The notes under the pieces: model-generated
The model's database searches: none
What the model saw: the letters and a program-made list of their open reading frames with translations, nothing else
Told to the model about the DNA's origin: nothing
Shown: positions 1 through 38,075 of the stretch, piece by piece
Numbering within the stretch: position 1 is the first letter of the stretch
How the letters are laid out: every line of letters begins with the position of its first letter
Made by a program: the position numbers and the translations under genes
IMG/VR virus record: IMGVR_UViG_2526164663_000052
Reading direction: 5' to 3' (one strand)
DNA: 39,928 nt
From: a virus
Lineage: Duplodnaviria > Heunggongvirae > Uroviricota > Caudoviricetes

Positions 1-177
1 ATGAAAATTTCCCGCCTTGGAGAAGCGCCCGATTACCGCTTCTCGCTGGCTAATGAGCGTACTTTTCTGGCGTGGATCCGTACCGCACTAGGATTTCTGG
101 CGGCGGGGGTTGGGCTTGATCAACTTGCGCCAGATTTCGCCACGCCCGTCATTCGTGAACTGCTTGTAACCAGGTGA
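1..177 (+). pseudogene. yidH: 5' part of host inner-membrane gene yidH, interrupted by the prophage left end after codon 55 (reads into phage DNA, stop at 175-177)
   Basis: Opens with ATG at position 1 and encodes [55 protein letters not shown], which I recognise as YidH (DUF202). The remainder of the protein (ALLLCLFSGG...LYAG) is found in frame at 38897..39082. Confidence 0.75.
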
Positions 178-340
178 ATCATTTGATACCAACGAGGGTT
201 TTAGTGAAAGGAGGTGAAATCACCTGTAAGATACTGAAATAAAACAGGTGATGTCTGGATGAGCGCTTAAAGTCTATTTGATACCGATTGTGCAATAATT
301 AATCGTTTATTCTAAAATCGGCAAAACTTTTGATACTGCG
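165..340 (+). repeat. Left end with three same-orientation TTTGATACC-type motifs (182-190, 277-285, 328-336), candidate transposase binding sites L1-L3
   Basis: The motif is seen directly three times; its reverse complement GGTATCAAA occurs three times at the right end. Calling them binding sites rests on analogy with Mu attL, not on sequence identity to Mu sites. Confidence 0.55.
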
Positions 341-414
341 ATCTCAACTTTTTAAAGCGTTTAAAACTTCATTAAATCTATATGGCAACTAACATACGGG
401 CCAGCCTCGCCAAA

Positions 415-945
415 CTAACCCGCTTTAGATTCTACCGGATTTGATTGCCTACTTGTCTCGGTTTTTTCCAAAATCTCTCTGACGCAATCGTCTGGCATAT
501 CTACAATCATCAACGCAGCCAGGCGCTTCCTGCCTTCTAGTTGTAATAAATCCTGGTTTTCTTTATCCAGCAGTGTCAGAACCGTCTCTACACCTTTGCG
601 AGCAAGGAGATTGGTTAACTGTTCTCGTTCGTCTTTCGTAAGGAATGAAAGCATCTGTGTAAGTTGATCTCCCTTATCACCAGAACGACCAAAATTACCA
701 CAAATACCAACATCGTTTGGTGATTCACCCTTGCCCTCTTTAAGCCACTCAAGACTAACTCCTTCACTTTCAGAAATTCGTATAAGGATACTTTCTCTGG
801 GGGCTGGTTGTGTTTGTCCTCCCTTGAAATAGCTGTTTAATGTGTTGATATTGATTCCCCACGCTCTGGCAGCTGCACTTCTTGAAGGGTAGCGCTTTGT
901 AAGCATTCCAATACGTTCAATAACAGGTTCTTTTCCCTGCGACAT
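415..945 (-). CDS. Prophage repressor (Mu c-like position, HTH N-terminus)
   Basis: Sits at the left end, divergent from ner-A-B. ATG at 945 is preceded by AAGAGG; the track ORF extends to 1020 with an implausible N-terminus. The N-terminal part (AARAWGININTLNSYFKG) looks like an HTH. Confidence 0.6.
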   Translation of the reverse strand: MSQGKEPVIERIGMLTKRYPSRSAAARAWGININTLNSYFKGGQTQPAPRESILIRISESEGVSLEWLKEGKGESPNDVGICGNFGRSGDKGDQLTQMLSFLTKDEREQLTNLLARKGVETVLTLLDKENQDLLQLEGRKRLAALMIVDMPDDCVREILEKTETSRQSNPVESKAG

Positions 946-1020
946 AAAGATACCTCTTGGTGCTTTTCTAAGGAAAGGTTTCTTTCTATTTATCCAATTG
1001 AAAAATAAGGATAAAAGCAA

Positions 1021-1135
1021 AAAATAGCCAAAATACCAAAAATACCTTGATTTGGTATTTTTAGTGATGCATTATTTACCCGTGCAGATATCCGCACGAA
1101 TATCCGCGCGGGTAACTTTTTAGAATAGAGGAAGT
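1021..1135. promoter_or_regulatory. Divergent repressor/ner control region with repeated operator-like motifs
   Basis: Contains CAAAATACC-AAAAATACC direct repeats plus an inverted GGTATTTTT (1027-1062) and a tandem ATATCCGC x2 (1088-1107), in the 115-bp gap between divergent regulators. Confidence 0.5.
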
Positions 1136-1384
1136 ATGAGTAGAAGAGAAGTTTCAGATCACGATTGGCCGCCTGAAATCATCAAGGCGCGCTTACACAT
1201 GGCTGGCTTATCACTGCGCTCTTTATCTTTAAAGGCTGGTTACAGCAGGGATTCGCTGAAAAGCGTATTACGTACTCCTTGCCGACCGTATCAGCAAATA
1301 ATTGCTGATGCTCTTGGGGTATCGCCTGAAGAAATCTGGCCCAGTAGATACCAGGTTAAGAGCTATATGAGAAAGGCGTCATGA
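1136..1384 (+). CDS. ner: Ner-like DNA-binding regulator
   Basis: 82 aa; the C-terminus QQIIADALGVSPEEIWPSRYQ matches the Mu Ner / Nlp family as I recall it. Lies immediately upstream of the transposase. Confidence 0.8.
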   Translation: MSRREVSDHDWPPEIIKARLHMAGLSLRSLSLKAGYSRDSLKSVLRTPCRPYQQIIADALGVSPEEIWPSRYQVKSYMRKAS

Positions 1385-1385
1385 T

Positions 1386-3476
1386 ATGTATGTCATTGCA
1401 AAAGAACTGATTGGCGCGCCCGGAATGCCTGCTACAACAAAAGGTATTCGCCAGGCATTACAACGTTACGTACAAGGGAAAAGCTGTTGTTCCCGTCGTC
1501 GCTCAGGCTCTAAAGCAACTGAATACAGCATCGACTGTTTACCTGAAGTGACGCAGCAGGCATTACGTGAACGTTATGCCCTGCAACTGATGACGCAAAA
1601 AGCCGATGAATCACCGGCTCCGGTGGTGACAAAGGCCAGACGCTCATCTGACGTGGTTGATGCGGTGGAGGCATATCGCGGATCACCACAACTGATGGTC
1701 GAACGCCTCAATGCCCTGACTGAAAACCAGCGCCAGGTGGCTGATGCACGAATCGCGATCGTCAGCGAAGTGATGAAAGTCGCGCAACAACCCGGTTTCA
1801 GCTGCGCGAAGGCTATCCGGTTTATCGTTGACAACCTGGCACGTTCACAGCTGGACGAGCGCATTGTGGCAATGGTTGAGACGGCGAACGCCAAAAAGGG
1901 AAACAGCCGTGCGTTGAGTGAAATCACGCTGAAGCGATGGATTGCGGCCTTTAACAAGGCACAGAACGCCGCTGAACGCCTGCTTTTACTGGCACCGGGT
2001 AAACGCCAGGAAATAAAAGCCGAAGATATTAACTGGCTGCCCGAATTTCTGGCGCAGTATCGCCAGTCAAACGGCCGACCAATGACCGAGGCTTACGAGG
2101 ATTTTGTTGCTGAATGGCAGCACCGGCACGCTGATGAGCCTTATATGCTCGATATCATGCCCTCTTATGACACCATTCGCCGCGCAATGAAGAAACTGCC
2201 GGAAGTGGTGAAACAAAAAGGCCGGGTGACAGGCAGTGAATACCGTCAGCTTGAGGGATTCACGCGCCGCGACTGGTCCAGAATGCCGGTGAATTATGTC
2301 TGGATTGGTGACGGTCACGGCATGAAGATGAAATGCAGGCACCCGGTTCACGGGCGGCCATTTGCACCGGAAGTGACCTTTGTTATCGACGGTGGCACGC
2401 GCTTTGTGGTGGGCTGGAGCCTTGACCTGGCTGAAAATGTTTTCGCCGTAGCCGGTGCCATACAGCACGGTATTCGCCATCACGGCAAACCGTTTCTGTA
2501 TTACTCGGATAACGGTTCGGGGGAAACCGCCGACGTCCTGGATAAGGAGGTTGTGGGGATACTGCCGCGACTGGGGATTAATCACCCGACCGGGATTGCC
2601 GGTAATCCGCAGGGGCGAGGCATTATCGAACGGCTTAACCGCACATTACCGATGCGCATAGCCCGTAAATACCGCACCTATTTCGGGAAAGGTGCAGATC
2701 GCGAGACGTTACGCAAAACCAACCGCGATTTACGCTCGGCATTTACCGCCCTGCAACAGGGCAAACGGCTGAACGCCCGGCAACAGTCAGCGATGCGTGA
2801 TTTACCGTCCTGGGCTGAACTGATTGATGCCATTCGTGACGGTGTTGAGTGGTACAACAACCGGCCGCACGATGAATTACCGGTGAAGCCGAACGGTAAA
2901 CATTACAGCCCGGCGGAGTTCAGAAAAAAACGCCTGGCGGAAGAGGACACGGAAATTGAATGGCTGTCCGATGTTGAGCTGCGGGATATGTTCCGGCCGA
3001 TGGTGGAACGCCCTGTAAGACGCTGTGAAATACGCTGGCTGAATAATATTTACTACGCGCCCGAGCTGCGTGACGAGCATGGTCGTAAGGTGCTTATCAG
3101 CTATGACATTCATGATGCCGAACGAATTACCGTACGTCGCCCGGATGGCAGCGTGATTTGCGAGGCGGTATGGGACGGCAATAAACGCGAAGCCTTCCCG
3201 GTCAGCGCGGAATACTACAAACAGCAGCAACGCCTTAAAGGCATGCGTAAACGCGCAGAGGAAAAAATCCGTGATGCCGAGGATGAGGTGGTCAACGTGC
3301 TGGAGCACAAGCAGCAGGAGCCATGGCTGGAAAACATCTACCGCCCGGTGGGTAATACGGTGGCCGTTCAGCAACCTGCCGTTGATGATGAACCTGATGA
3401 AGAATACGAGCGTAATTTCCAGCGGGGATTGCAGTTGCTGGAAGCGAAATTAAAAGAAAATGACCCGCTGGCCTGA
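1386..3476 (+). CDS. DDE transposase, MuA-like
   Basis: 696 aa in the Mu A position, followed by the B ATPase. Assigned by size, position and family resemblance. Confidence 0.9.
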   Translation: MYVIAKELIGAPGMPATTKGIRQALQRYVQGKSCCSRRRSGSKATEYSIDCLPEVTQQALRERYALQLMTQKADESPAPVVTKARRSSDVVDAVEAYRGSPQLMVERLNALTENQRQVADARIAIVSEVMKVAQQPGFSCAKAIRFIVDNLARSQLDERIVAMVETANAKKGNSRALSEITLKRWIAAFNKAQNAAERLLLLAPGKRQEIKAEDINWLPEFLAQYRQSNGRPMTEAYEDFVAEWQHRHADEPYMLDIMPSYDTIRRAMKKLPEVVKQKGRVTGSEYRQLEGFTRRDWSRMPVNYVWIGDGHGMKMKCRHPVHGRPFAPEVTFVIDGGTRFVVGWSLDLAENVFAVAGAIQHGIRHHGKPFLYYSDNGSGETADVLDKEVVGILPRLGINHPTGIAGNPQGRGIIERLNRTLPMRIARKYRTYFGKGADRETLRKTNRDLRSAFTALQQGKRLNARQQSAMRDLPSWAELIDAIRDGVEWYNNRPHDELPVKPNGKHYSPAEFRKKRLAEEDTEIEWLSDVELRDMFRPMVERPVRRCEIRWLNNIYYAPELRDEHGRKVLISYDIHDAERITVRRPDGSVICEAVWDGNKREAFPVSAEYYKQQQRLKGMRKRAEEKIRDAEDEVVNVLEHKQQEPWLENIYRPVGNTVAVQQPAVDDEPDEEYERNFQRGLQLLEAKLKENDPLA

Positions 3477-3546
3477 AATAAAAAATAACCCGAGCGGCGA
3501 CTCAGGTTATTTGATTAAACAAGGTATCAAATGAGAGGTTAATAAT

Positions 3547-4479
3547 ATGACTGATATTAACGATGTAATCAAGACCATTGATGAACTTATTGATGGCGGC
3601 GTACTGACGCAGTATGCCATCGCCAGAGAGGCGGGAATTTCCGACGGCACATTATCGGCTTTCCGTAAGGGAAAATATAAAGGCGATAACGCTGCTGTGG
3701 CTGCTTCCCTGCGTTCCTGGTATGAGAACTGGAATAAACAAAGCGCACTGCCGGAACCGCCGCAGTTTGTGGAAACGCAGACAGTCCAGGAGCTGCGCGC
3801 ACTGTTTCAGGCGGTTCGTCTGATGGGCTGTATTAACGTTATTGTGGGCGTACCGGGTGTGGGTAAAACGGCCACTGCCCGTAATTACTGCCAGGAGCAA
3901 CCAAACACCTGGATGATCACCCTGTCACCCGCGCACTCTAGCGTCACGGAGTGTCTGCTGGAGCTGGCCGATGCGCTGGGGATTGATTACACCCGCGCGA
4001 ACAAAGGGGCATTATCCCGCGCCATCCGCCGTCGCCTAATGGGAACGCGTGGACTGGTGATTGTGGATGAGGCGGATCATCTTGGTATTGACGGTCTGGA
4101 GCAACTCCGGGCAATTCAGGACGCCACGGGGATCGGGATGGTGCTTATTGGTAACCCGCGCGGATTGTTTAAAGGTGGACGCCGCGCCTTTGATGATTTA
4201 TCGCGCCTGTTCAGCCGTCTTGCCCGTACAAAACAACTTCGCAAGGCCAAAAAGGCGGATGTGCTGGCCATTGCCAGGGCGTGGGGGATCAGTGGTGAGG
4301 CCGAGCTGGCCGTCATGCAGGCTATCGCTGAAAAGCCGGGAGCGTTACGCGTTCTGACACATACGCTTAACCAGGCGTGGCTCACCGCCAGCGGTGAAGG
4401 CGCGGCGCTGACAGAAAAACATATTAATGCGGCCTTTAAAGAGGTTTATACCAACCCTGAATTACTCTCACAGGTGTGA
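3547..4479 (+). CDS. Transposition ATPase / target DNA activator, MuB-like
   Basis: 310 aa with Walker A GVPGVGKT and Walker B VIVDEADHL. Shares LPEPPQFVETQTV and KPGALR blocks with Mu B as I recall it. Confidence 0.9.
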   Translation: MTDINDVIKTIDELIDGGVLTQYAIAREAGISDGTLSAFRKGKYKGDNAAVAASLRSWYENWNKQSALPEPPQFVETQTVQELRALFQAVRLMGCINVIVGVPGVGKTATARNYCQEQPNTWMITLSPAHSSVTECLLELADALGIDYTRANKGALSRAIRRRLMGTRGLVIVDEADHLGIDGLEQLRAIQDATGIGMVLIGNPRGLFKGGRRAFDDLSRLFSRLARTKQLRKAKKADVLAIARAWGISGEAELAVMQAIAEKPGALRVLTHTLNQAWLTASGEGAALTEKHINAAFKEVYTNPELLSQV

Positions 4480-4481
4480 TT

Positions 4482-4703
4482 ATGGCGGTATTTAATATTC
4501 CTGATATTTACGGACGCTTTTACCTGGTTAATTTCGATAACGTGAAGGTGATTTCACTGGCCGAAAATAAAGAATGTGGCGATTTACTTTTTGAATTTAA
4601 TGACCGCACACGAATGGTGATATCTGCCGGACTTGATCGCGAAGGTGCGACAGACGTTTACAGCGGAATATGCCGTTCTGTTGGTGCGAAACAAGTCAGC
4701 TAA
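4482..4703 (+). CDS. Hypothetical early protein
   Basis: ORF in the early operon; ATG at 4482 follows AGGTG. The track start at 4476 is a GTG overlapping the B stop codon. Confidence 0.45.
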   Translation: MAVFNIPDIYGRFYLVNFDNVKVISLAENKECGDLLFEFNDRTRMVISAGLDREGATDVYSGICRSVGAKQVS

Positions 4704-4715
4704 ATGAGGTGTTAT

Positions 4716-4970
4716 ATGAATATGCAATCCTGCGGTAACAAAATGAATTTATTCGACTCCCTGAACAGCGCGCGCCGTCTGACCGAACTTGCCGGTGCGG
4801 TACTGGAACGCAGTAAGCGCTATCCGCAACGTTTTGCACTGAAAACCACGCCGCCGGTAGGCAACGTGCAGGGAACCGGTGAAATTGAAATCACCATACA
4901 GACCAACGGCCTGCGCCGCCGTGTGAAGGCCACCCGCATCAGCGGCTGCACGGTTTACTGGGAGGTGTGA
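4716..4970 (+). CDS. Hypothetical early protein
   Basis: ORF with ATG at 4716 preceded by GAGG; the track shows an alternative start at 4704. Confidence 0.45.
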   Translation: MNMQSCGNKMNLFDSLNSARRLTELAGAVLERSKRYPQRFALKTTPPVGNVQGTGEIEITIQTNGLRRRVKATRISGCTVYWEV

Positions 4971-5045
4971 GGTGAAAAAAATCTCATTGCATGGGCGTGG
5001 TCGAGTGGTCTTATTGAGTTTGGTTACGTCCTGCCGGAAGGTGCA

Positions 5046-5252
5046 TTGCCGATAGTTGCCGGAAAGCCTGCCACGGTACGGCATGTGATTGAGGTTATGG
5101 CGCGTCATGGACGTGATGAACAGGAGCAGTTACTGGTTCCGGGGATACCGGAAGCGGTGACGGAGGAAGAAGCCTTTAATGCCATGATTCGGTTCTGCCG
5201 TGAGGTCAGACGCCGGGTCAGTTATCCAAACAGAACGAGGACCAGAGGATGA
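5046..5252 (+). CDS. Hypothetical early protein (TTG start, weak)
   Basis: Open frame 4971..5252 with no ATG or GTG; only a TTG at 5046. Confidence 0.25.
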   Translation: MPIVAGKPATVRHVIEVMARHGRDEQEQLLVPGIPEAVTEEEAFNAMIRFCREVRRRVSYPNRTRTRG

Positions 5253-5521
5253 GTAAAGTCGTACGCATTATTTTCGAATACAAGGAGCACGTTATCCATA
5301 AAAACGCTGATGGAACAGTGCGCATGGGGGTAAGTCTGGACATACGTTCAACCGGGATAAAGCAGAAAGGTGATGGACCCGCCATGATTTTTGGGGTGGT
5401 TATGCTCGCGGAAAGCAGAGACTTTGCTGAACTTGTGGCAATGAAAGCCAGTGCGCTCATGAAAGATATGAGCATGCGTTCCGGGGTTATTAAAGGTAAT
5501 GAATTTAATCAGCAGGGGTAA
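5249..5521 (+). CDS. Hypothetical early protein, paralog 1 (MSKVVRIIFEYKEH...)
   Basis: ATG follows GAGG. Its N-terminus is shared with the next gene. Confidence 0.5.
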   Translation: MSKVVRIIFEYKEHVIHKNADGTVRMGVSLDIRSTGIKQKGDGPAMIFGVVMLAESRDFAELVAMKASALMKDMSMRSGVIKGNEFNQQG

Positions 5522-5525
5522 TTCC

Positions 5526-5819
5526 ATGAGCAAAGTACGCGTTATTTTTGAATTTAAGCATGTTTCGCATGACGAAAAACCGGCAGGCAATGACTGTGTT
5601 GAAGTGCATGAAAAGATTGGTGTGGATGTAAAAACAGAACGTGATACGAATAACAGGCCGACGTCACTCTGTGACGTTTATGCAAGTATTCTCCAGTATC
5701 ACAGTCCTGAAATTATTCAGTTTCTCTCAGCGGAATTTCAGGCATCTGTACAGGCTTTTGGGGCGGATGCCATCATTAAACGCCACCGCGTGCATAAAGC
5801 ATCAGGCACACTGCAATAA
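5526..5819 (+). CDS. Hypothetical early protein, paralog 2 (MSKVRVIFEFKH...)
   Basis: Start chosen at the internal ATG 5526 because it gives the same N-terminus as the upstream paralog. Confidence 0.5.
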   Translation: MSKVRVIFEFKHVSHDEKPAGNDCVEVHEKIGVDVKTERDTNNRPTSLCDVYASILQYHSPEIIQFLSAEFQASVQAFGADAIIKRHRVHKASGTLQ

Positions 5820-5830
5820 GGAAAAACAAA

Positions 5831-6361
5831 ATGGCTAAACGTGTTACAAAATTAAAGGCCGCAGCCGAGGCTGCACCGCAGACCCGCGAAGAAGTCAGCC
5901 GCGATATCCGTACCCTGGGCGATATTCAGCGAGAGGCGCTGCGGCTGGAAACGGCGATGAATGATGAAGTGGCAGAAATCACCGCCCGTTATACGCCGCA
6001 GATTGAAAACCTTAAAAAAGAAATCAAAGTGCTTTTTAAGGGGATTCAGGACTGGTGCAAAACCAACCGCGATGAGCTGACGAACGGCGGCAAAACCAAA
6101 ACAGCCAATCTGACCACCGGAACAGTGTCATGGCGGCTGGGAAATCCATCATGCAGCGTCAGCCGTGATGTGGAAGGTGTGATTGAAATGCTGAGCCGTA
6201 TGGGGCTTGAGCGATTCATCCGCACGAAAGAGGAAGTGAACAAGGAAGCGGTCCTGGCGGAGCCGGATGCAGTGAAAGGCATTGCCGGTATTAAGGTGAA
6301 TAAAGGCGCTGAAAGTTTTTATGTCGAGCCTTTTGAACAGGACGCCGGACTGAATAAATAA
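5831..6361 (+). CDS. gam: Gam host-nuclease inhibitor (Ku-like DNA-end binding)
   Basis: 176 aa; DELTNGGK.KTANL..G.VSWR and RFIRTK.E.NKEA blocks match Mu Gam as I recall it. Confidence 0.88.
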   Translation: MAKRVTKLKAAAEAAPQTREEVSRDIRTLGDIQREALRLETAMNDEVAEITARYTPQIENLKKEIKVLFKGIQDWCKTNRDELTNGGKTKTANLTTGTVSWRLGNPSCSVSRDVEGVIEMLSRMGLERFIRTKEEVNKEAVLAEPDAVKGIAGIKVNKGAESFYVEPFEQDAGLNK

Positions 6362-6458
6362 CACCGCATTAAATCTTTAAATATCACATCGTTTTAAGTA
6401 TGGCGCTCGCGTCAGGGGACTGCCTGCGCCTGTAAACTGAAAATAAGGAACAGGATAT

Positions 6459-7001
6459 ATGGCATATTTTTATTTCAAATTAGACCGTGTGCAGACAAAT
6501 AAATATTTCACCAAATATCAACAGACTGTTTTACCGCTACGCAACAGTATTCTTCGGGCATTACTGAAAAATACAGGCGCTGCCGGATTGCGCTTAAAGC
6601 CGTTTGCCATGGACGTAATCAGTGAGTTTTATTTTTCTGGTGCTCTGCCTGCGGGCTGGCGTAAGCGCGATGATGTGGCTTTTATCGGGGACGGACCGTG
6701 CTTTATTGCCAGACCTGATGAGTCATGCCCTGAAGGACCGGCGATTGCCGCAATGATTGAAGCCGCTGAACGCGAGTTAAGAAAGCGTCCTGATTTCCTT
6801 GTCTGGCTCTGTGAAAAGCTGGGGGTAATGAGAATCCCCTCCATGTTTAACATGGACTCCTGGTGGACCCCGTCGCTCTCCCGTGATGCCCTGTGCGTGG
6901 TGTTTAAAGTAGGCGCTTATGGCAGGGAAATAAAAGGGGGTATTCCTGAAGAATGCCAGGAGATTAAACATTCTGAATATGTGGCGCTGACGGAGGAATA
7001 A
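6459..7001 (+). CDS. Hypothetical early-region protein
   Basis: 180-aa ORF; SD AAGGAA upstream; no family recognised. Confidence 0.5.
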   Translation: MAYFYFKLDRVQTNKYFTKYQQTVLPLRNSILRALLKNTGAAGLRLKPFAMDVISEFYFSGALPAGWRKRDDVAFIGDGPCFIARPDESCPEGPAIAAMIEAAERELRKRPDFLVWLCEKLGVMRIPSMFNMDSWWTPSLSRDALCVVFKVGAYGREIKGGIPEECQEIKHSEYVALTEE

Positions 7002-7004
7002 TTC

Positions 7005-7538
7005 ATGATTGATGCAAAAGTGCTTGAAGGGGTTAAAAACTGGCTGAGTATTTACGGGCGTCTGACCTGCGGCATTCTGGCTGAAAAAATGAATATGCCG
7101 CCATCCTCGATGGTTTATTTTCTGCGTGATGCGGTCGATGCCGGGGTGCTGACGGAATGTAACGGTTTTTATGATATTCCGCGTCCCCGCCCGGTGCAGC
7201 CGGTTCGTCGCAAATGCAGCCAGGAAGGTGCGGCTGATGATGTTCAGTGGTGCAGCTTCAGAAAATCCCTGCCGTGGATTGAGGGGCATGATATTCCGTC
7301 AATGGCGTGGGAATTTGCTCAGGGCGTTCTGACCTGTGAAACCGTTTATGTGGTGGCTGAAGTTGATGAGCAGGCCATGAAAGAAGGCGTGCCCCAGTTT
7401 GTGATGGCGTATATCGACATACGCCTGGGTGTCATTATCTGCGGTTTAAGCGGCTGGAATATCACCTCGCGCGTTCTGCGTTACCTGATTGTTGACCGGA
7501 CGGCCGCGCCTGCCGGGATATCTGCGGAGGTGGCGTAA
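7005..7538 (+). CDS. Hypothetical early-region protein
   Basis: 177-aa ORF tightly packed in the operon; no family recognised. Confidence 0.5.
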   Translation: MIDAKVLEGVKNWLSIYGRLTCGILAEKMNMPPSSMVYFLRDAVDAGVLTECNGFYDIPRPRPVQPVRRKCSQEGAADDVQWCSFRKSLPWIEGHDIPSMAWEFAQGVLTCETVYVVAEVDEQAMKEGVPQFVMAYIDIRLGVIICGLSGWNITSRVLRYLIVDRTAAPAGISAEVA

Positions 7539-8053
7539 TGTTCTTTAAAACATCAAACCCTTCCGCGCTGGCCGCGTGGCAAAAATATCAGCAGGACTGC
7601 CAGAAAGTTAAGGATGAGGCAAAACGCCTTGAGGCCGTGCTGAATGTTGCGTGCCGGTCGGTATTTGTATCCGGTATCAGTGGCTTTTGTTTTAAAGGGC
7701 TGCGCTTTATGGATGACAAATATCCTTTTCATCGCGACTTATGGCGAAAACCGACTGCGTCGAATGGCTGGAGCTGCACACCGCGCACATCACGTATTCC
7801 CAAAGCCCTGCGCGTTGCCTCTGACGAACTTAACAGTCTGTGGCGTGAATATTCGCCCGTCACGTATGCCAGAACCGATGCACTGTTGTTCTGGCTGGGT
7901 ATTGATTTCTCGGCAATCATGTTTGGCCCTGTGAAGTGGTTCTGCGTTGACGATGTGATTTACCTTGAGTGCGGCGTAAAACCCGCAAATCAGAAAATGA
8001 CCGAAATTCTGTCTGATGAGTTTTATGCTGCTGAAAAGCGAGTCAGGGGGTGA
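7538..8053 (+). CDS. Hypothetical early-region protein
   Basis: 171-aa ORF, start overlapping the upstream stop. Confidence 0.5.
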   Translation: MFFKTSNPSALAAWQKYQQDCQKVKDEAKRLEAVLNVACRSVFVSGISGFCFKGLRFMDDKYPFHRDLWRKPTASNGWSCTPRTSRIPKALRVASDELNSLWREYSPVTYARTDALLFWLGIDFSAIMFGPVKWFCVDDVIYLECGVKPANQKMTEILSDEFYAAEKRVRG

Positions 8054-8056
8054 TGT

Positions 8057-8608
8057 ATGATGATTTTACAACCCATGGGGCGAAAAGGTCAGGCACCTGC
8101 TCATGTCCGTGCGTGGACACCTGAAGAAGATGCGCTGCTGATTGCGCTTTATCCATCCACCCCGGTTAAGGATATTGCTGTCAGGGTAAAAAGAAGTTTC
8201 TGGGGTGTACATAACCGGATTGTTTTATTACGCGGTACTTACCCGGAGTTGCTCAAATGCAAACGTCCAAGATTTAAACATGATGAAGATAAATTTATCC
8301 GAAAAAATGCCAGAACGATGACCGGTAAGCAAATAGGAGAATATCTGGGGCGAGACCGGGATTCTGTCCACAATCGGGCGCGATATATTGGCGTAAGCAT
8401 GAAAAAATACGGAGAATTGCTGCCCTTCACCCGTATACCTGACGATGATGTTCATCTTATTCGTGAATTACGGGATGCTGAATCACCACGACGTCTTACC
8501 TTCCGGGAAATAGGCGAGAAATTTGAATTATCCGAGAGTACGGTGAATTTTATTTATCACCATCGCCGGACTGCCGAGGACGCTGTATTACGGGAGTTAA
8601 CGCCATGA
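8057..8608 (+). CDS. Putative DNA-binding protein with three internal ~45-aa HTH-like repeats
   Basis: Repeats begin WTPEEDALLIALY, HDEDKFIRKNARTM and DDDVHLIRELRDAE; each ends with an S.HNR-type motif. The first resembles a Myb/SANT repeat. Confidence 0.5.
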   Translation: MMILQPMGRKGQAPAHVRAWTPEEDALLIALYPSTPVKDIAVRVKRSFWGVHNRIVLLRGTYPELLKCKRPRFKHDEDKFIRKNARTMTGKQIGEYLGRDRDSVHNRARYIGVSMKKYGELLPFTRIPDDDVHLIRELRDAESPRRLTFREIGEKFELSESTVNFIYHHRRTAEDAVLRELTP

Positions 8609-8790
8609 TAAAGAGACTTGTATTTTTCGCAATTTTCGTTCCGGTGTTGGGGGTTGGTTTTATATTTGCGATTACAGGAAACCTGTCCATGATGCCAGAT
8701 ATTTGGTTCTTTATCAGGATGTCGCTCTTCCTGTTTATTATGAATCTTCTTATCGACATATATATCCGTATTACTGGAAAACATAAATGA
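8605..8790 (+). CDS. Small hydrophobic (likely two-TM) protein
   Basis: 61 aa, strongly hydrophobic (FFAIFVPVLGVGFIFAI ... LFLFIMNLLIDIYI); the sequence reads as AT-rich. Confidence 0.4.
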   Translation: MIKRLVFFAIFVPVLGVGFIFAITGNLSMMPDIWFFIRMSLFLFIMNLLIDIYIRITGKHK

Positions 8791-9161
8791 GAAAAATCAC
8801 GTCCTTGTCAGAGTTACAGGAGATGAATATGAGTATTGAATTAAGATCGTCTTATGAGTATCGCAAATTTCTTATCGCCGGAGGCATGAAACCGGAAGAT
8901 GTGGAAAAAATCGTTTCTTTTATGGATAAGGAATGTGATAAGCGGGATGTGTCAGAAATTATTATGGATGACATGATTCTGGATTCAGTCGTGGCGTTAA
9001 GTCCGTTATGGATTGTGCATTCTCTTGCGGAAATTGCCAAAGGCACCGATAAACAGGCAGCTGTTGCTGCCCTTCAGACGCTTAATGAAATGCGTATATC
9101 TCCACGCCCGACATTAATACAGATGATTTTGTCCAGTATGGAGGATAAAGCAAATGAATAG
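8787..9161 (+). CDS. Hypothetical protein
   Basis: 124-aa ORF; reads as AT-rich; no family recognised. Confidence 0.45.
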   Translation: MRKITSLSELQEMNMSIELRSSYEYRKFLIAGGMKPEDVEKIVSFMDKECDKRDVSEIIMDDMILDSVVALSPLWIVHSLAEIAKGTDKQAAVAALQTLNEMRISPRPTLIQMILSSMEDKANE

Positions 9162-9351
9162 TCTACCCGCTGGATGGGCGCGCCCTCTGATGGCTAAGAA
9201 GCATCATTTTTTTAAAACTGGCGATAATATCAGTATATGTAGGCGGTGGTTATATCTGGCTCATAATCGCGAGCCGGATACATTTGAAAGCCCTGATGAC
9301 TGTGCCGAATGTCGCAGAAGACTGAATAAGGAGAAAGATAATGGACAATAG
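9154..9351 (+). CDS. Hypothetical small Cys-containing protein
   Basis: 65 aa with C..C...C..C spacing at the C-terminus; possible zinc binding. Confidence 0.35.
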   Translation: MNSLPAGWARPLMAKKHHFFKTGDNISICRRWLYLAHNREPDTFESPDDCAECRRRLNKEKDNGQ

Positions 9352-9637
9352 TTCTCTGTTGTTCTGGTGCTTATATATCACATCCTTTTTCGGCGCATTT
9401 GTTATTACCCGGTGGTTATGTCGAAAAATCATCTGCTTTTTTGATAAAAGACATCCGGTTGAACGGGCGGCTGATGCGCTCATTCAGCAGGCCATTGTGT
9501 TATATAGCGGTGAATTTTTCTGCCGGATAACAACCAGAGATGGCTGGCACATAATGATTATTCCACCAACACACCATGCCCGGTGGGATGAGGCAGAAAA
9601 GGCTTTCCATGTCCGTAAAAAGGTAAATACGGTATGA
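9341..9637 (+). CDS. Hypothetical protein with N-terminal transmembrane segment
   Basis: 98 aa; hydrophobic N-terminus LLFWCLYITSFFGAFVI. Confidence 0.4.
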   Translation: MDNSSLLFWCLYITSFFGAFVITRWLCRKIICFFDKRHPVERAADALIQQAIVLYSGEFFCRITTRDGWHIMIIPPTHHARWDEAEKAFHVRKKVNTV

Positions 9638-10143
9638 GAGGAAAACTGATATCCGCCATTCATGTGGCAAAGCGCGAGCTTGCCCTGGATGATGAGACTT
9701 ATACATCCGCGCTGCTGGCAGCCACCGGCAAAACCAGCTGCCGGGATATGTCACCGGATGAGTTATCCCGCGTGCTGGATGTTTTCAAAAAACGCGGTTT
9801 TAAAGTGCGTCAGAACCCGGTTAACCGGGCCTTAAAACCGGGTACGGTGACCGCCAAAATTCGCGCCATCTGGAAGGTGATGCACCGGCAGGGCTTTATC
9901 TCTGATGGTGCGGAAACCGCCCTTAACCGCTGGGTGAAATCGCAGACGGCCGCGCAAAACGGCGGCGAAGGTGTGGCAAACTGGCAGTGGCTGGAGCAAC
10001 ACCCCGCCCTGGCCTCAGATGTGCTGGAGCGTCTCAAGCGATGGCACCGCCGCAAAATGCTGGCCGCGATGGGAATGCCCGAACGCACGCTGATGGGGTA
10101 TGACGCCGTTTGCAGGCAGTATGAAAAATCACTTCCCCGTTAA
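9634..10143 (+). CDS. GemA-like (Mu gp16 family) regulatory protein
   Basis: 169 aa, immediately upstream of mor as in Mu. Family assignment is by position and general resemblance. Confidence 0.55.
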   Translation: MRGKLISAIHVAKRELALDDETYTSALLAATGKTSCRDMSPDELSRVLDVFKKRGFKVRQNPVNRALKPGTVTAKIRAIWKVMHRQGFISDGAETALNRWVKSQTAAQNGGEGVANWQWLEQHPALASDVLERLKRWHRRKMLAAMGMPERTLMGYDAVCRQYEKSLPR

Positions 10144-10147
10144 CTCC

Positions 10148-10178
10148 AAATCCCGCCACAACGCGGGATTTTTATTTT
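10148..10178 (+). terminator. Rho-independent terminator after the gemA-like gene
   Basis: Stem ATCCCGC / loop CACAAC / stem GCGGGAT, followed by TTTTTATTTT. Confidence 0.6.
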
Positions 10179-10212
10179 AAACTTACCGGGAACGCGAGAA
10201 CCGGAGGCTGAT

Positions 10213-10638
10213 ATGGCAGAAACTCAGATGAGCATGTTTGGTGGTGACAGTGAGCAACTGCACGCCCTTATCGACCGCCTTGATGACATCCCTGATGATG
10301 TTCTCAAAAAGAACTGGCCGCGGACCCTGTCAGAACTGGTTGAAGTCACCGGCGCAGAACTTCAGCGTCAGGGGATTGAGCCGGTACTGGCCGGTAAACT
10401 GGCACGCAAGGTGGCTGCGGCTCAGGCAGCCTATATGGGCGGACGGGGTTATTACCTGCCGGTCGGGGAATCTCTCTTTGCCGAGCTGCGAAACAATGAG
10501 ATATTTTCGCGCTGGGACCGGGGCGAGAAAATTGAATCCCTTCGCCGCCATTACCGGATGTCAGAAACCCAGATTTATACCGTCATACGCGAACAGCGCC
10601 GTCTGCATCTGGCAAGAACGCAACCGCCACTTTTCTGA
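10213..10638 (+). CDS. mor: Mor/C-family transcriptional activator
   Basis: 141 aa; C-terminal HTH region (YRMSETQIYTVIRE) and overall layout resemble Mu Mor/C. Only one homolog is present. Confidence 0.75.
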   Translation: MAETQMSMFGGDSEQLHALIDRLDDIPDDVLKKNWPRTLSELVEVTGAELQRQGIEPVLAGKLARKVAAAQAAYMGGRGYYLPVGESLFAELRNNEIFSRWDRGEKIESLRRHYRMSETQIYTVIREQRRLHLARTQPPLF

Positions 10639-10709
10639 TATTCCGCAAAGCCTGCCGCCTCTCCTTCACCGTTACGCTGACTCAGAGAACATCATGAGAC
10701 AGCGTAACA

Positions 10710-11210
10710 ATGCCAAAACTCCCCGCACCACTGCGTAAAAAGCTGATTGCCCTTGTTCTGGCCGGTGCCGGGACGTTCACGATTGCCACGCATTACACCG
10801 GTTACTGGGAAGGGAAAGAAAACTCCACGTATATCGATCCCACCGGTACACCCACCATCTGTTACGGCCATACCGGCCCGGATGTGAAACCGGGTATGAC
10901 CCTGACAGATGAAGAATGCCTGGAACTACTGGAAAAGGACATGAAATGGGCCTTTGCGGCCATTGATCGGCGTGTTCAGGTGCCGCTTACCCGTGGTCAG
11001 ACGGTGGCGCTGGCTTCGTGGATCTTCTGGGCCGGTGAAACGAACTTTCGCAACTCCACGCTTCTGCGCCTGATCAATGCCGGGCAGATGCCCGCGTCCT
11101 GTAAGCAGTATATCCGCTGGATTTATTCAAAGGGGGTGAAACTCCCCGGCCTTGAGGCCCGCCGTTCGGCGGATGAATGGTTATGTCGCTACGACTTGCC
11201 GAAAGTCTGA
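10710..11210 (+). CDS. SAR-type endolysin (GH24 lysozyme)
   Basis: N-terminal signal-anchor LIALVLAGAGTFTIA, then a lysozyme core (YWEGKENSTYIDPTGTPTICYGHTG ... FRNSTLLRLIN) resembling phage P21-type SAR endolysins. Confidence 0.85.
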   Translation: MPKLPAPLRKKLIALVLAGAGTFTIATHYTGYWEGKENSTYIDPTGTPTICYGHTGPDVKPGMTLTDEECLELLEKDMKWAFAAIDRRVQVPLTRGQTVALASWIFWAGETNFRNSTLLRLINAGQMPASCKQYIRWIYSKGVKLPGLEARRSADEWLCRYDLPKV

Positions 11211-34032: not shown

Positions 34033-34593
34033 ATGCTGATTGGCTATATACGCGTATCAACAAATGACCAGAACACCGGTTTACAAAGAAATGCGCTGGA
34101 ATGTGCAGGATGTGAGCAGATTTTTGAAGACAAAATGAGTGGTAAAACGACACAGCGGCCGGGACTGAAGCGGGCACTGAAGAAACTAAAACCCGGTGAC
34201 ACGCTGATGGTCTGGAAACTGGACAGGCTGGGGCGCAGTATGCGCCACCTTGTTGCGCTGACAGATGAATTACAGCAACAGGGGATAAATTTTCGTAGTC
34301 TTACTGACAACATTGATACGTCAACCCCCATGGGGCGCTTCTTTTTTCACATAATGGGTGCGCTGGCAGAAATGGAGCGTGAATTAATTGTCGAACGGAC
34401 ACGGGCTGGTCTTGCAGCAGCCCGTGAAAGGGGACGAACCGGCGGCAGACCCCGCCGTCTCACGCAGGAACAATACGAGCAGGTCGGGCGTTTACTGGCC
34501 GGGGGTGTCAGTCGAAGACAGGTGGCACTTATTTTTGATATCGGTCTTTCAACCCTTTATCGTTATTATCCTGCGAGCGTTTCGGAAAAATAA
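34033..34593 (+). CDS. gin: Serine DNA invertase (Gin/Hin/Cin family)
   Basis: 186 aa; N-terminus MLIGYIRVSTNDQNTGLQ with catalytic-serine context, C-terminal HTH; lies next to the invertible segment. Confidence 0.9.
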   Translation: MLIGYIRVSTNDQNTGLQRNALECAGCEQIFEDKMSGKTTQRPGLKRALKKLKPGDTLMVWKLDRLGRSMRHLVALTDELQQQGINFRSLTDNIDTSTPMGRFFFHIMGALAEMERELIVERTRAGLAAARERGRTGGRPRRLTQEQYEQVGRLLAGGVSRRQVALIFDIGLSTLYRYYPASVSEK

Positions 34594-34692: not shown

Positions 34693-36741
34693 ATGACGTC
34701 CAAATGGGTTCAACTATCATCAATGCCCGGAAACTTTACTGTTAAAGTTTCCGGTGGTACAGCGGCATTTCTTGAGGCTCCCTTTCCTCCGGCCGAAACA
34801 AAAGGAGGAATGACATTTGCTGACTGTCTCATCAGTTTTAATACACAGGATTGCCTGTGGGTAAGGCCAGTATCCGGTGATCCGAACGTGGAAATTACCG
34901 GAGCGGGTATTGGTGCTGTCATTCCGTTAAGTGCTGATGTTGCCGGTACTACTGAACCGTCAGACTGGGATAATGCAGAAACACATACCCGTCCGGCAGG
35001 AAATGAAACGGCTTCCAGCTCCCCTTCCTGGTATTACGTGATTGTTATAGCCGGCCAGTCCAATGCTTCATCTTATGGTGAAGGGTTGCCCCTTCCGGAT
35101 TCTTATGATCGTCCTGATCCACGTATTATGCAGCTGGCACGCAGGAATACACAAACCCCCGGAGGTATTCCCTGCAAATACAATGAAATCATTCCAGCAG
35201 ATCACTGCCTTCATGATGTTCAGAATATGAGTCTGCTGAACCATCCAAAAGCAGACCTGAAAAAAGGGCAGTATGGTTGTGTGGGGCAGGGACTTCATAT
35301 TGCGAAAAAAGTATTACCGGTGATTCCTGCTGATGCCGGGATTTTACTGGTTCCCTGTGCCCGTGGCGGCTCTGCTTTTACAACCGGCGCAGTTGGCTCA
35401 TTCGATCCGGCAAGTGGTGCAGCCGAGGCGTCACTACGCTGGGGAGTGGATACCCCACTGTATCAGGATCTTGTCAGTCGAACTAAAGCGGCACTTGAGG
35501 CGAATCCAAAGAATGTGCTGTTATCTGTCGTATGGATTCAGGGGGAAGGAGACCTTAAAGCGACCCCGGCCCAGCATGGTGCCCAGTTTACTGCGATGGT
35601 GAAAAAATTCCGTGCGGATCTTGGTGCTTTCTCCGGTCAGTGTATTGGTGGTTCATCAGACAGTGTGCCGTGGTTATGTGGTGACACAACCTATGACTGG
35701 AAAGAGAAGAACCCGGCGGCATATGAAACCATTTATAGCGGATATAAAAACCGGGCTTCCGAGAACATTCACTTTGTTCCACTGATGCACGATGAGTTCG
35801 GTAATAAAACCGCGACCAACCTGCCGGAGCACGACCCGGATATCGCTTCTGCCGGGTATTATGGTGCGGAATCACGGGGAGATGGCAACTGGACAACAGC
35901 ATCCAGGGCAACCCATTTTAGCTCCTGGGCGCGCCGTTTTCTGGTCTCAGATCGTTTTGCATCAGCAATTCTTAAATATGCAGGTCTGACCTCTGCATTT
36001 ATTGCCGGTGTGGCCCCTGATGGTGAAGCCCTGCCTCAGCCCGCGCCGGGTGGGAAACCGGAAGCGCCGACAGGTAGTCAGCCAGGAGGCAGTGAGTCCC
36101 CCCATCCGACATCCCCGTCACTCCGTACGCTGCTTTCACTTAAAGCATCAGCAGGAGAAGCCCCGGCTCAGGGCTGGAAAATTACAGATGGTACAATCCA
36201 GCTGACGGACGAAGGTAAAGCGTTGACCGTATCCAAACAAAGCGGAAAAACCTGGACGCTTACCCATGGAACTGATGCAGCCGGTGAACTTCTGAAGCAT
36301 GGTGGTCAGTTGACCTGTAAATTCCGTCTGTCAGGTGAAGTAAAAGAAGGCCAGTTTGCTCTGGGTATTTACCTCCACACCGATACGGTCCCGGAAGGTG
36401 TAACCATGAGTGGTACAGGCACACCGTTCCTGATGGCGTATTATCTCCAGACAACAGGCGGCCAGTTAAATCTGATGCACCATAAAACAGGGGGGAATAC
36501 GAAACTGGGATCATTTGGAGCCTACAATAACCAGTGGCATACACTTGTCCTGAAGTTTACGGCGGGAAGTGCCCAGGTAACGCCTGTGCTGGATGGCACT
36601 CCGGGCCAGGCATTCCAGATGGTGAAAGATGCACTTTCCCCTGCCAAAGATACGCTGACACTGACAGATGTCACCAAAGGGGCAACTTATGGCGTGTCTT
36701 TTGAGAGCGTTGTCCTTGAGGTTAATACCCCTGCGGCATAA
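34693..36741 (+). CDS. Cargo gene: putative SGNH/SASA-family carbohydrate O-acetylesterase with a C-terminal beta-rich domain
   Basis: 682 aa. VIVIAGQSNASSYGEG (GQSN block), CARGGS and VWIQGEGD motifs resemble the sialate O-acetylesterase (SASA, NanS-type) family. Mu has no gene of this kind between gin and com. Confidence 0.5.
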   Translation: MTSKWVQLSSMPGNFTVKVSGGTAAFLEAPFPPAETKGGMTFADCLISFNTQDCLWVRPVSGDPNVEITGAGIGAVIPLSADVAGTTEPSDWDNAETHTRPAGNETASSSPSWYYVIVIAGQSNASSYGEGLPLPDSYDRPDPRIMQLARRNTQTPGGIPCKYNEIIPADHCLHDVQNMSLLNHPKADLKKGQYGCVGQGLHIAKKVLPVIPADAGILLVPCARGGSAFTTGAVGSFDPASGAAEASLRWGVDTPLYQDLVSRTKAALEANPKNVLLSVVWIQGEGDLKATPAQHGAQFTAMVKKFRADLGAFSGQCIGGSSDSVPWLCGDTTYDWKEKNPAAYETIYSGYKNRASENIHFVPLMHDEFGNKTATNLPEHDPDIASAGYYGAESRGDGNWTTASRATHFSSWARRFLVSDRFASAILKYAGLTSAFIAGVAPDGEALPQPAPGGKPEAPTGSQPGGSESPHPTSPSLRTLLSLKASAGEAPAQGWKITDGTIQLTDEGKALTVSKQSGKTWTLTHGTDAAGELLKHGGQLTCKFRLSGEVKEGQFALGIYLHTDTVPEGVTMSGTGTPFLMAYYLQTTGGQLNLMHHKTGGNTKLGSFGAYNNQWHTLVLKFTAGSAQVTPVLDGTPGQAFQMVKDALSPAKDTLTLTDVTKGATYGVSFESVVLEVNTPAA

Positions 36742-36798
36742 TCGTGACGGCCGGGAATTTATCCGGCTGTAACATCAGTTAATAAGAGTGAGGCTTAT

Positions 36799-36978
36799 AT
36801 GACATATATAAACGTCTGCCTGCTGTATTTCTGCACGGTGGTTTGTTGTCTGTTGCTTGTCAGCGGTGGTTATAAAATTATTCGCAATTATTTTCGAAAT
36901 AAAATTGATGCAGCTGCCGAGGAAAAGATAAAAAGCGGTGCTGTAATGCCGCAGCCGAAAGACTCCGGTCAGATTTAA
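36799..36978 (+). CDS. Small hydrophobic protein (59 aa, below the ORF-track cutoff)
   Basis: ATG 36799 preceded by GAGG; translates to MTYINVCLLYFCTVVCCLLLVSGGYKIIRNYF... (one TM plus a charged tail). Confidence 0.4.
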   Translation: MTYINVCLLYFCTVVCCLLLVSGGYKIIRNYFRNKIDAAAEEKIKSGAVMPQPKDSGQI

Positions 36979-37013
36979 TTTTTTGTGAACCAGAAAAGGA
37001 AAGGAGAATATTC

Positions 37014-37259
37014 ATGCCAGAGATTAAAGGCACGGTTACTGAAGAGCTTGTCAAACAGGCACTTTATTCTGAAGAAGTGAACCGCGTGCTGAAGGCGCAG
37101 GTTCGCAAGGATTTTGAGGCACAAATCGACGCATATGTTGATGAAGTGCTGGCCCGAATGGTTGGTCGTTCTCCGGCTGAAAACAGCACGGAAAATGAGC
37201 CTCAACCCGTAGAGCAACCAGAGCCGGTTCAACCCGGAACTGACGGTACTATGATGTAA
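37014..37259 (+). CDS. Hypothetical acidic protein
   Basis: 81 aa; strong SD AAGGAAAGGAGA upstream; followed by a hairpin. Confidence 0.5.
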   Translation: MPEIKGTVTEELVKQALYSEEVNRVLKAQVRKDFEAQIDAYVDEVLARMVGRSPAENSTENEPQPVEQPEPVQPGTDGTMM

Positions 37260-37268
37260 CAATACCGA

Positions 37269-37288
37269 CCGGCAGGTTTCCCTGCCGG
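37269..37288. terminator. Hairpin between convergent small genes
   Basis: CCGGCAGG / TTTC / CCTGCCGG perfect stem-loop, between the + strand stop (37259) and the - strand stop (37298). Confidence 0.5.
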
Positions 37289-37297
37289 GTGAATTTG

Positions 37298-37468
37298 TTA
37301 ATGCACGTTTTGTGTATTTTCCCTCCGGGGAGAACAGGCCGGACATATCAGCATCCTGAAACAGGAAGCATTTTTTGGTTTGTATGTCTTGCCATTTTGA
37401 GATCGAGAACGGCGATAGATGAGCTGTAAGGGAGTCTTACAGGCAGGGCAAACAGGCTCTTTATCCAT
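37298..37468 (-). CDS. Small zinc-ribbon protein (CPAC...CPAC), 56 aa
   Basis: ATG at 37468 preceded by AAGGAG; translates to MDKEPVCPACKTPLQLIYRRSRSQNGKTYKPKNASCFRMLICPACSPRRENTQNVH. Convergent with the 37014..37259 gene. Confidence 0.45.
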   Translation of the reverse strand: MDKEPVCPACKTPLQLIYRRSRSQNGKTYKPKNASCFRMLICPACSPRRENTQNVH

Positions 37469-37689
37469 GATAAAGATCTCCTTTTTATGCATCTCTGCTT
37501 TACAGGAGACCGGGGAATATCATAGGATACGCCACGAGCTCGAAGTAAAGCATTGATGCAAGTTTTTACAGATTGACCCAGCATAGTTCCAGCTATGCTG
37601 GGTTTCCCTTTTATGTAGTATCCTGTTGATTTGAAACATACTACATATACGCGCGATCCTACCTTCACTGTATAAAAAGTCAATAAAAT

Positions 37690-37827
37690 GATCATTTTAT
37701 GATCGTTTTCACCACCTAACTCTTCGTTTCTTTAAGTAAATAATCACCGCCCTGAATCATTGTTGATGACTTTTAAATCTATTTGTTGTATCAATTAAAC
37801 AAATCGAATCGATCGTTTTTGTCGATC
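37690..37827. promoter_or_regulatory. Candidate mom-operon regulatory region with four GATC (Dam) sites in two pairs
   Basis: GATC at 37690, 37701, 37811 and 37824; the second pair sits in a near-palindrome AATCGATCGTTTTTGTCGATCGATT, ~50 bp upstream of com. The Mu mom promoter is known to be controlled by Dam methylation and OxyR. Confidence 0.5.
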
Positions 37828-37874: not shown

Positions 37875-38075
37875 ATGTATCGAAACATACGGTGCCGACA
37901 CTGCAATAAGCTACTGGCACGGGCCAGTTTCAGTTATCTGGAAGTAAAATGTCCGCGCTGTAAAACCCTCAATCAAATCACATCTCCGAGCGCCACAGAG
38001 CACCCCACATACACAAGGAAATCCTGTCGTGGGGAACAGAAAGCAAGTCACATCCCGTATCATCAGCACGCCTGA
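37875..38075 (+). CDS. com: Com, zinc-finger translational activator of mom
   Basis: [14 protein letters not shown]...KCPRCK matches Mu Com (M..IRC.NCNKLL...RCPRCK) as I recall it; overlaps the start of mom. Confidence 0.8.

Follow-up and report, generated by a model that had tools for sequence, protein, structure and literature searches.

A D5-like protein with three helix-turn-helix modules encoded in the early operon of a Mu-like Escherichia coli prophage

Gene and protein at the locus

The IMG/VR record IMGVR_UViG_2526164663_000052 is a stretch of 39,928 nucleotides (nt) of Caudoviricetes DNA, in the following called the window. It represents a Mu-like prophage of Escherichia coli and is 96-97% identical to the regions annotated as 'inserted Bacteriophage Mu-like phage' in two Shiga toxin (Stx) phage records. 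Here we deal with one gene of this prophage, whose product of 183 amino acids (aa) had been described in an original prediction, made from the sequence alone, as an early protein built from three tandem helix-turn-helix (HTH)-like repeats. The HTH interpretation is right, and the coordinates and length of the open reading frame (ORF) were confirmed. It belongs to a known and widespread phage family, together with D5 of phage T5 and gp9 of phage Mu, and is itself uncharacterised.

The gene starts 3 nt after the stop codon of the upstream ORF, and its own stop codon shares the sequence ATGA with the start codon of the next ORF. The identical sequence, deposited as RefSeq WP_000973021.1 ('DNA-binding protein'), is found in many E. 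coli chromosomes. This gene is real, as it is present in many E. coli genomes and shows a ratio of nonsynonymous to synonymous substitution rates (dN/dS, omega) of 0.26 between alleles.

The protein is basic overall, with an isoelectric point (pI) of 9.9. Its three modules, here called R1, R2 and R3 (Table 1), differ in charge: R1 (pI 10.0) and R2 (pI 10.3) are basic and R3 (pI 6.3) is acidic. R3 resembles region 4 of sigma-70 factors and the AsnC-type HTH. The N-terminal tail is conserved (mean column entropy 0.91 bits, with G11 and H16 invariant) and is predicted by AlphaFold2 to be disordered, with a per-residue confidence (predicted local distance difference test, pLDDT) of 47-63. Residues 2-56 match the small family PHROG 38779. 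The conservation of the N-terminal peptide spans Mu-like and P2-like homologues. Possibly, the tail is an arm that reaches into a DNA groove, or a short linear motif that binds a partner.

Table 1. Features of the D5-like gene and of its surroundings in the window
Feature	Position	Strand	Remarks
Mu Gp11-like gene	7005-7538	+	PF25754, E 8e-40
PHROG 2314 gene	7538-8053	+	
D5-like triple-HTH gene	8057-8608	+	183 aa plus stop; ATG start, TGA stop
N-terminal tail, residues 1-17	8057-8107	+	consensus MILxPMGxPGxCPAHVR (23-sequence alignment)
Repeat 1 (R1), residues 18-59	8108-8233	+	Myb/SANT/GcrA-like three-helix HTH; helices 22-31, 37-44, 48-59
Repeat 2 (R2), residues 71-112	8267-8392	+	duplicate of R1; helices 75-84, 90-97, 101-110
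Repeat 3 (R3), residues 124-172	8426-8572	+	divergent HTH; helices 129-140, 149-156, 160-169
C-terminal helix, residues 173-181	8573-8599	+	AEDAVLREL, conserved
Mosaic patch over R2 and R3	8200-8600	+	sliding nucleotide identity 64-82%, compared with 91-97% in the flanks
Terminator-like hairpin (10148-10171) plus T-run	10148-10181	+	directly 3' of the GemA/gp16-like gene

Internal repeats

Within the single sequence the repeat signal is modest: the best off-diagonal Smith-Waterman score was 39, compared with 26.2 +/- 4.1 for 300 shuffled sequences, four of which reached 39 as well. Therefore 32 homologues were collected, 23 of them were aligned over their full length, and sub-profiles of this alignment were compared with hhalign. 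R1 and R2 align over 42 ungapped columns with a probability of 98.4% and an E value of 1e-14. For R2 and R3 the E value was 8e-5 (probability 61%), and for R1 and R3 it was 0.0046 (probability 8%). Profile comparison thus makes the duplication of R1 and R2 secure; R3 is a third unit that has diverged, and its status as a repeat rests mainly on the structural model. A hidden Markov model of the R1/R2 unit gave three spaced matches in T5 D5 (residues 73-101, 135-174 and 208-226), the third of which corresponds to R3.

The proposed build of three units of about 45 aa thus holds, with R3 as a divergent copy, and all three units have the acidic start ascribed to them (PEED, HDED and DDDV, respectively). 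Less remains of the 'S.HNR' motif that had been assigned to each unit. VHNR is found in R1 and R2, R3 has STVNF instead, and the His and Asn residues are not conserved in the family; the arginine in R1 (R54) is the only residue of the motif that is invariant across the alignment. The original prediction had named an insignificant repeat alignment and a fold other than a DNA-binding HTH as results that would speak against it. By profile comparison the repeats are significant, and the fold predicted by AlphaFold2 consists of HTH bundles.

Predicted fold and domain families

The AlphaFold2 model, which was calculated with the 23-sequence alignment, has a mean pLDDT of 85.2 and consists of three consecutive three-helix bundles followed by a final helix at residues 173-181. 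The predicted template modelling score (pTM) of the whole chain is 0.54; therefore the relative placement of the modules is undefined. The best matches among solved structures were the DNA-binding domain of GcrA, R2R3-Myb and SANT domains. A Foldseek comparison of the whole model with the PDB gave weak matches and picked DNA binders with multiple HTHs, namely sigma factors, Cbp1, the Myb repeats of SNAPc, and Tc3/Mos1. The sequence search against the PDB returned nothing significant, the top match being a designed HTH protein (E 0.13).

The first unit had been noted to begin like a Myb/SANT repeat (WTPEED), which was confirmed: 16 of the 23 homologues match Myb_DNA-binding at E <= 0.01 (best 6.3e-9), and 15 match Sigma70_r4. 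The 183-aa protein itself lies below every curated Pfam cut-off. With Pfam Myb (PF00249) it scores 14.7 bits, and the cut-off is 24.4. A three-helix bundle with an HTH that superposes on Myb or SANT is present in the model. The three-tryptophan signature of Myb is not: in R1 the first position is held by the invariant W20, R2 has F72 and R3 contains no tryptophan (the residues at the second and third Trp positions were assigned by eye). Hence 'SANT/Myb-like' describes the fold of R1 and R2, not membership by Pfam cut-off. The model also contains the HTH fold of the N-terminal domain of the GcrA family (PF07750). A counterpart of the C-terminal domain of GcrA, which interacts with sigma-70 region 2, was not found: Pfam gave no GcrA match, and nothing but one helix follows the third HTH. 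The residues of the GcrA pocket for N6-methyladenine (m6A), R33, N34, I37 and G38, fall on variable positions of helix 3 when the sequences are aligned by eye.

Several other assignments were considered and rejected. With the AsnC/Lrp family there is an HTH_AsnC-type match of 22.4 (cut-off 27) that covers only residues 131-163, and the model is all-helical without beta strands. As the AsnC-type HTH is sub-threshold and confined to R3, and no RAM domain is present, the names 'AsnC family' and 'winged helix-turn-helix' carried by some family members are misnomers. For the sigma-70 family (regions 2 and 4) there was a sub-threshold region 4-like match on R3 only (19.4, cut-off 24.1), and TIGR02937 scored 14 (cut-off 42.9). 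Matches to HNH homing endonucleases cover the HTH part only, and no HNH domain was found in the Pfam search. PADLOC, searched for known defence systems, gave a marginal HEase match (E 0.0083) for the protein and none for its neighbours. The best-founded name for the protein is 'D5-like DNA-binding protein'.

Membership in the D5 family

The 183-aa protein belongs to PHROG 323, 'transcriptional regulator, D5-like', with an E value of 6.3e-59; its residues 2-182 align to positions 80-256 of the 319 positions of the profile. T5 D5 (T5.118, YP_006946.1, 255 aa) matches the same profile at 1.2e-71 and covers positions 3-270. The N-terminal ~70 aa of D5 (profile positions 3-80) are not part of the 183-aa protein, which begins at position 80. 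In a direct comparison with the profile of the 183-aa family, residues 71-231 of D5 align to residues 17-168, i. e. to all three repeats (hhalign probability 96.3%, E 1.7e-9). According to the T5 record, D5 is a DNA-binding protein that is required for DNA replication and late transcription and is involved in the shutoff of expression. Its gene sits among those for ligase, helicase, primase and polymerase.

Mu gp9 (E8, Mup09, NP_050613.1), a protein of 99 aa, is a homologue of R2 and R3: its residues 5-94 align to residues 66-166 of the 183-aa protein (probability 97.7%, E 1.4e-12), and it matches PHROG 323 at 5.2e-29. The RefSeq records of Mu, D108 and SfMu name gp9 'transcriptional regulator, D5-like', and in all three the gene lies upstream of gam. 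In several other Mu and D108 records gp9/E8 is still hypothetical or conserved hypothetical. The phage in the window has an unrelated small gene (phrog_2230) at the gp9 position, and the search of the whole window gave no second member of the D5-like family.

Fold matches in BFVD include a T5-like 'D5 protein', several Goslar proteins, the 'AsnC family protein' of phage C130_2 and endonucleases that bear HTHs; many phage proteins in this database share the tandem-HTH build. The original prediction regarded a triple-HTH protein in a phage early operon as unusual. This view could not be upheld, given a PHROG that is shared with T5 D5 and Mu gp9, the many look-alikes in BFVD and the large number of profile matches described below.

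Distribution and neighbours of the homologues

The gene is present in 232 of 5426 complete E. coli genomes (~4%), and homologues were also found in Salmonella, Citrobacter and Hafniaceae. IMG/VR yielded 65 loci, of which 42 are Mu-like (L002-L043, L051). In these the Gp11-like gene, the PHROG 2314 gene and the D5-like gene occur together wherever the locus extends upstream of the latter; the other neighbours are variable. Two loci with only distant MuA/MuB matches (L062 and L065) had no detectable neighbour homologues.

Twenty loci carry homologues of 37-48% identity and are P2-like prophages, as they encode an integrase and the replication protein gpA (PF05840). In each of the 20 the homologue belongs to the early operon, where its immediate upstream neighbour is a Dam-type (D12) N6-adenine methyltransferase gene and gpA follows downstream; sometimes a C5 methyltransferase or an Ash-like gene is found between the homologue and gpA. 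The block (e. g. L044 5173-8063 and L057 4993-7471; further loci among L045-L064) often contains a C5 methyltransferase, a nucleoside deoxyribosyltransferase-like or an Ash-like gene. In the P2-like Citrobacter phage Shae_phiSM the homologue has no methyltransferase in the stretch examined.

When the family profile was searched against 1.84 billion representative sequences, 14,356 proteins were found at E <= 1e-3. Among the best 149 of them most have five to eight copies of the R1/R2 unit, with a maximum of 13, and those with names are bacterial 'SANT/Myb-like' or generic regulators. Tandem arrays of the R1/R2-type HTH unit are thus common. Many metagenomic proteins (among P0035-P0182) have 300-1100 aa with 5-13 tandem copies, and in one of them (P0035) the array is fused to a ResIII/Helicase_C helicase. 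A scan of contigs with degenerate patterns gave two distant loci; the patterns were too strict to speak on the taxonomic range.

In Mycobacterium phage Yeet (L070 1989-3873) a methyltransferase gene is annotated as split around a gene for an HNH endonuclease. Immediately upstream of the HNH ORF is the tandem-HTH match, which thus appears to be the DNA-binding module of the homing endonuclease. A methyltransferase link through the mycobacteriophage matches was therefore rejected, since the HTH array apparently belongs to an HNH endonuclease that is inserted in the methylase gene.

Variation within the gene

In each repeat the third helix is the most variable element of the homologue alignment, with mean column entropies of 1.77, 1.89 and 2.10 bits in R1, R2 and R3, respectively. 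In R3 this hypervariable helix follows two acidic helices that hardly vary at all (0.49 bits for helix 1 and 0.26 bits for helix 2). The substitutions that distinguish the two E. coli alleles also concentrate in the third helices.

The two alleles differ in a patch that covers R2 and R3 (Table 1). The allele in loci L022-L040 is about 71% identical to that of the window, and its neighbours are 90-97% identical. The synonymous divergence (dS) is 1.8 and 0.70 in the patch, compared with 0.16-0.21 in the flanks, at an omega of 0.11-0.27. Recombination brought in the R2-R3 allele, one boundary falling within the gene, and purifying selection maintains it. The swapped segment is the part that is homologous to Mu gp9.

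A second mosaic patch lies further downstream, in a 98-aa ORF at 9341-9637 (PHROG 17269). This ORF has two alleles that are about 50% identical among otherwise near-identical prophages, and the nucleotide identity over 9400-9600 is 52-59%.

The early operon and the remaining prophage

The left arm of the prophage begins with a 176-aa ORF on the minus strand (415-945), which is annotated as hypothetical; this divergent ORF is provisionally taken as the repressor. There follow an HTH protein at the position of Ner, the Mu transposase A, the AAA+ protein B, five small ORFs, Gam, a PHROG 2260 gene, the Gp11-like and PHROG 2314 genes and the D5-like gene. Downstream of the latter are four small ORFs, a gp16/GemA-like gene, a Mor-family activator and a lysozyme. 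All genes from the Ner-like one through GemA are on the plus strand, and around the D5-like gene there is no excess of promoter-like or terminator-like sites inside the operon. Together with the hairpin that follows GemA, this places the D5-like gene in the early transcript, the end of which is probably marked by this hairpin. The region around the gene corresponds to the accessory early genes of Mu.

A single activator gene of the Mor/C family (10213-10638) lies downstream of the strong hairpin. Mu itself has two activators, Mor and C, and its Mor gene directly follows and overlaps GemA. With one activator, placed after the hairpin, the regulatory cascade may be shorter or differently arranged in this phage.

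At the right end about 3.4 kb separate a Gin-like invertase (34033-34593) from Mom (38029-38766). In between, at 34693-37695, are the gene for a 682-aa protein, which has both a SASA (sialate O-acetylesterase-like) domain and DUF6645, and two minus-strand ORFs (36975-37346 and 37348-37695) for which Pfam and PADLOC gave no match. This region may be a cargo or host-range module. The right flank of the window (39072-39434) encodes a DUF202 protein, while the prophage copy in E. coli 90-3040 (L001 23-1111) interrupts comEC. Thus the copy in the window may occupy another chromosomal site, as is expected for a transposable phage.

Proposed role and alternative explanations

The evidence joins a three-module HTH protein of the D5/gp9 family to early operons beside replication functions in three unrelated types of phages: Mu-like phages, P2-like phages and T5. 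We propose that the protein is an early binder of duplex DNA that modulates transcription or replication, and assign this interpretation as a whole a probability of roughly 60%. The part of it that concerns DNA binding and membership in the D5 family is highly probable. In addition to the family link, the basic character of R1 and R2, the purifying selection and the early-operon context support the proposal. DNA binding, its targets and the regulatory outcome are what we infer.

The gene would be transcribed with the early operon, after the transposition genes A and B and gam, and the HTH modules of the protein would be arranged like three beads on a string. The basic modules R1 and R2 could contact neighbouring major grooves of duplex DNA with their third helices, in the manner of c-Myb R2R3 and the GcrA domain; for the DNA-binding domain of GcrA, major-groove binding, m6A reading and sequence specificity have been described (PMC5887438). 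R3, with its invariant acidic face of helices 1 and 2 and its hypervariable helix 3, might make a third DNA contact or dock on a conserved partner, and the N-terminal tail might add a further contact to a groove or a partner. By analogy with T5 D5, such early DNA binding would affect the balance between early transcription, replication and the expression of later genes. For a Mu-like phage an accessory role is more probable than an essential one.

Several points weigh against this proposal. The identity to D5 is only about 24%, and D5 has an additional N-terminal part of 70 aa, so that its function need not apply here. The acidic R3 possibly does not contact DNA, and the arrangement of the modules is not defined by the model (pTM 0.54). 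Repeated DNA motifs, taken as candidate binding sites, were searched for in positions 1-11000 of the window; this gave short families of two or three copies, often explicable by chance, and no candidate stood out. Literature searches on Mu-like and Myb-like phage HTH proteins, on the semi-essential region of Mu and on gp9 returned nothing on the 183-aa protein, and there is no experimental work on it or on Mu gp9. Finally, recognition helices as variable as these are easier to reconcile with a regulator that is sequence-specific than with a general binder of duplex DNA like D5.

The last point leads to an alternative that we regard as unlikely, yet worth serious attention, namely that the protein is a sequence-specific transcription factor with allele-specific operators in the phage or the host genome. 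It would then act as a regulator of the classical type or, as the original prediction suggested, as a hijacker directed at the host. In all three repeats variation is greatest in helix 3, which usually serves for recognition, and the helices of the scaffold are conserved. The allele substitutions cluster in the third helices as well, and the best fold matches, Myb R2R3 and the GcrA domain, are sequence-specific (PMC5887438). For a host target the one indirect argument is the toxicity of T5 D5 for E. coli when it is expressed alone (PMC13405049). On the other hand, the motif search gave no operator repeat, the allele type does not follow the repressor type and follows the Mor type only loosely, and the high dS reflects recombination with a divergent lineage and not positive selection. 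A separate and very improbable explanation is that the protein reads DNA methylation, as GcrA reads m6A in GANTC, or acts together with DNA methyltransferases of the phage. This is suggested by the fold match with GcrA and by the P2-like prophages, where a Dam methyltransferase is the neighbour in 20 of 20 loci, often with a C5 methyltransferase in addition; the phage in the window has the DNA-modification gene Mom. However, these 20 loci may be one lineage, and no methyltransferase is found near the gene in the window or in the examined stretches around T5 D5 and the Shae_phiSM homologue. Moreover, the GcrA pocket residues (PMC5887438) appear to have no conserved counterparts in the alignment by eye, the sigma-interacting domain is absent, and the apparent methylase matches in mycobacteriophages trace back to the inserted HNH homing endonuclease.

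Less probable still is a role in the conflict between phage and host, either as a counter-defence DNA mimic or binder or as a protein that is sensed by defence and escapes by swapping alleles. The type IX retron-Kva2 is triggered by T5 D5, which binds the multicopy single-stranded DNA (msDNA) of the retron through an HTH; escaper phages carry mutations in D5 (PMC13405049, 2026 preprint). The recombinational swap of R2-R3 inside the gene would suit such an escape. But a protein gains no function from being sensed, omega is lower than 1, and PADLOC gave no defence or anti-defence family beyond the marginal HTH match. The least probable of the explanations considered is that the DNA-binding module of an HNH homing endonuclease, or a relative of it, persists here on its own as selfish or neutral baggage. 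There are weak matches confined to the HTHs (PHROG 1891, E 0.0046; PHROG 6156, 0.016; and the PADLOC HEase model), and BFVD lists endonucleases with a like HTH array; yet the protein has no nuclease domain, is under purifying selection and keeps its position in two unrelated groups of temperate phages, and the T5 homologue is essential according to its record. Beyond these explanations we can imagine, with little confidence, that D5-like tandem-HTH proteins are an evolutionary battleground of temperate and virulent phages, which exchange third helices and the R2-R3 cassette. Host sensors such as the type IX retron could be the driver, or the alleles may differ in the DNA mark or sequence that they read; a link to methylation would agree with the Dam methyltransferase that is always found beside the gene in the P2-like prophages. 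If so, the protein would determine sensitivity to defence, or gene control that depends on modification, and would not be a housekeeping early regulator.

Relevance

The family link provides a name and a testable function for a gene that has variously been labelled 'hypothetical', 'AsnC family' and 'SANT/Myb'. It brings together in one family Mu gp9/E8, an early gene conserved among P2-like prophages, and T5 D5, which has long been known. The intragenic swap of R2-R3 and the hypervariable third helices offer a handle on specificity, and the role of D5 as a retron trigger makes the family relevant to defence biology. What goes beyond routine is the connection between gp9, the three-module protein and D5, the cassette swap within the gene and the connection to retrons; nothing in this will surprise a phage specialist.

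Comparison with known systems

T5 D5 and the protein from the window share PHROG 323 and three colinear HTH repeats, and D5 too is the product of an early gene beside replication genes. In contrast to the 183-aa protein, D5 has the extra N-terminal part and an Ala/Lys-rich C-terminal tail. D5 comes from a virulent phage and is required according to the record, whereas the gene in the window belongs to the accessory part of a temperate Mu-like early operon. Mu gp9 is likewise encoded in the early operon of a transposable phage. Unlike the 183-aa protein, it has only two modules and lacks R1 and the N-terminal tail. The positions also differ: gp9 lies upstream of gam, and the gene in the window lies downstream of the Gp11-like and PHROG 2314 genes.

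Among proteins of cellular organisms, the DNA-binding domain of Caulobacter GcrA (PDB 5yiu) is one HTH that is combined with a sigma-70-binding domain, whereas a domain of the latter kind is absent from the window protein with its three HTHs. Compared with Myb R2R3 and SANT proteins (WER 6kks, c-Myb 1h89, CoREST 2iw5), it keeps only the first signature tryptophan, which is replaced by phenylalanine in R2; its third module is a different HTH type, and it is of bacterial-virus origin. Sulfolobus Cbp1 (PDB 2lvs), an archaeal host protein that binds CRISPR repeats, has no detectable sequence relationship to it and serves a different role.
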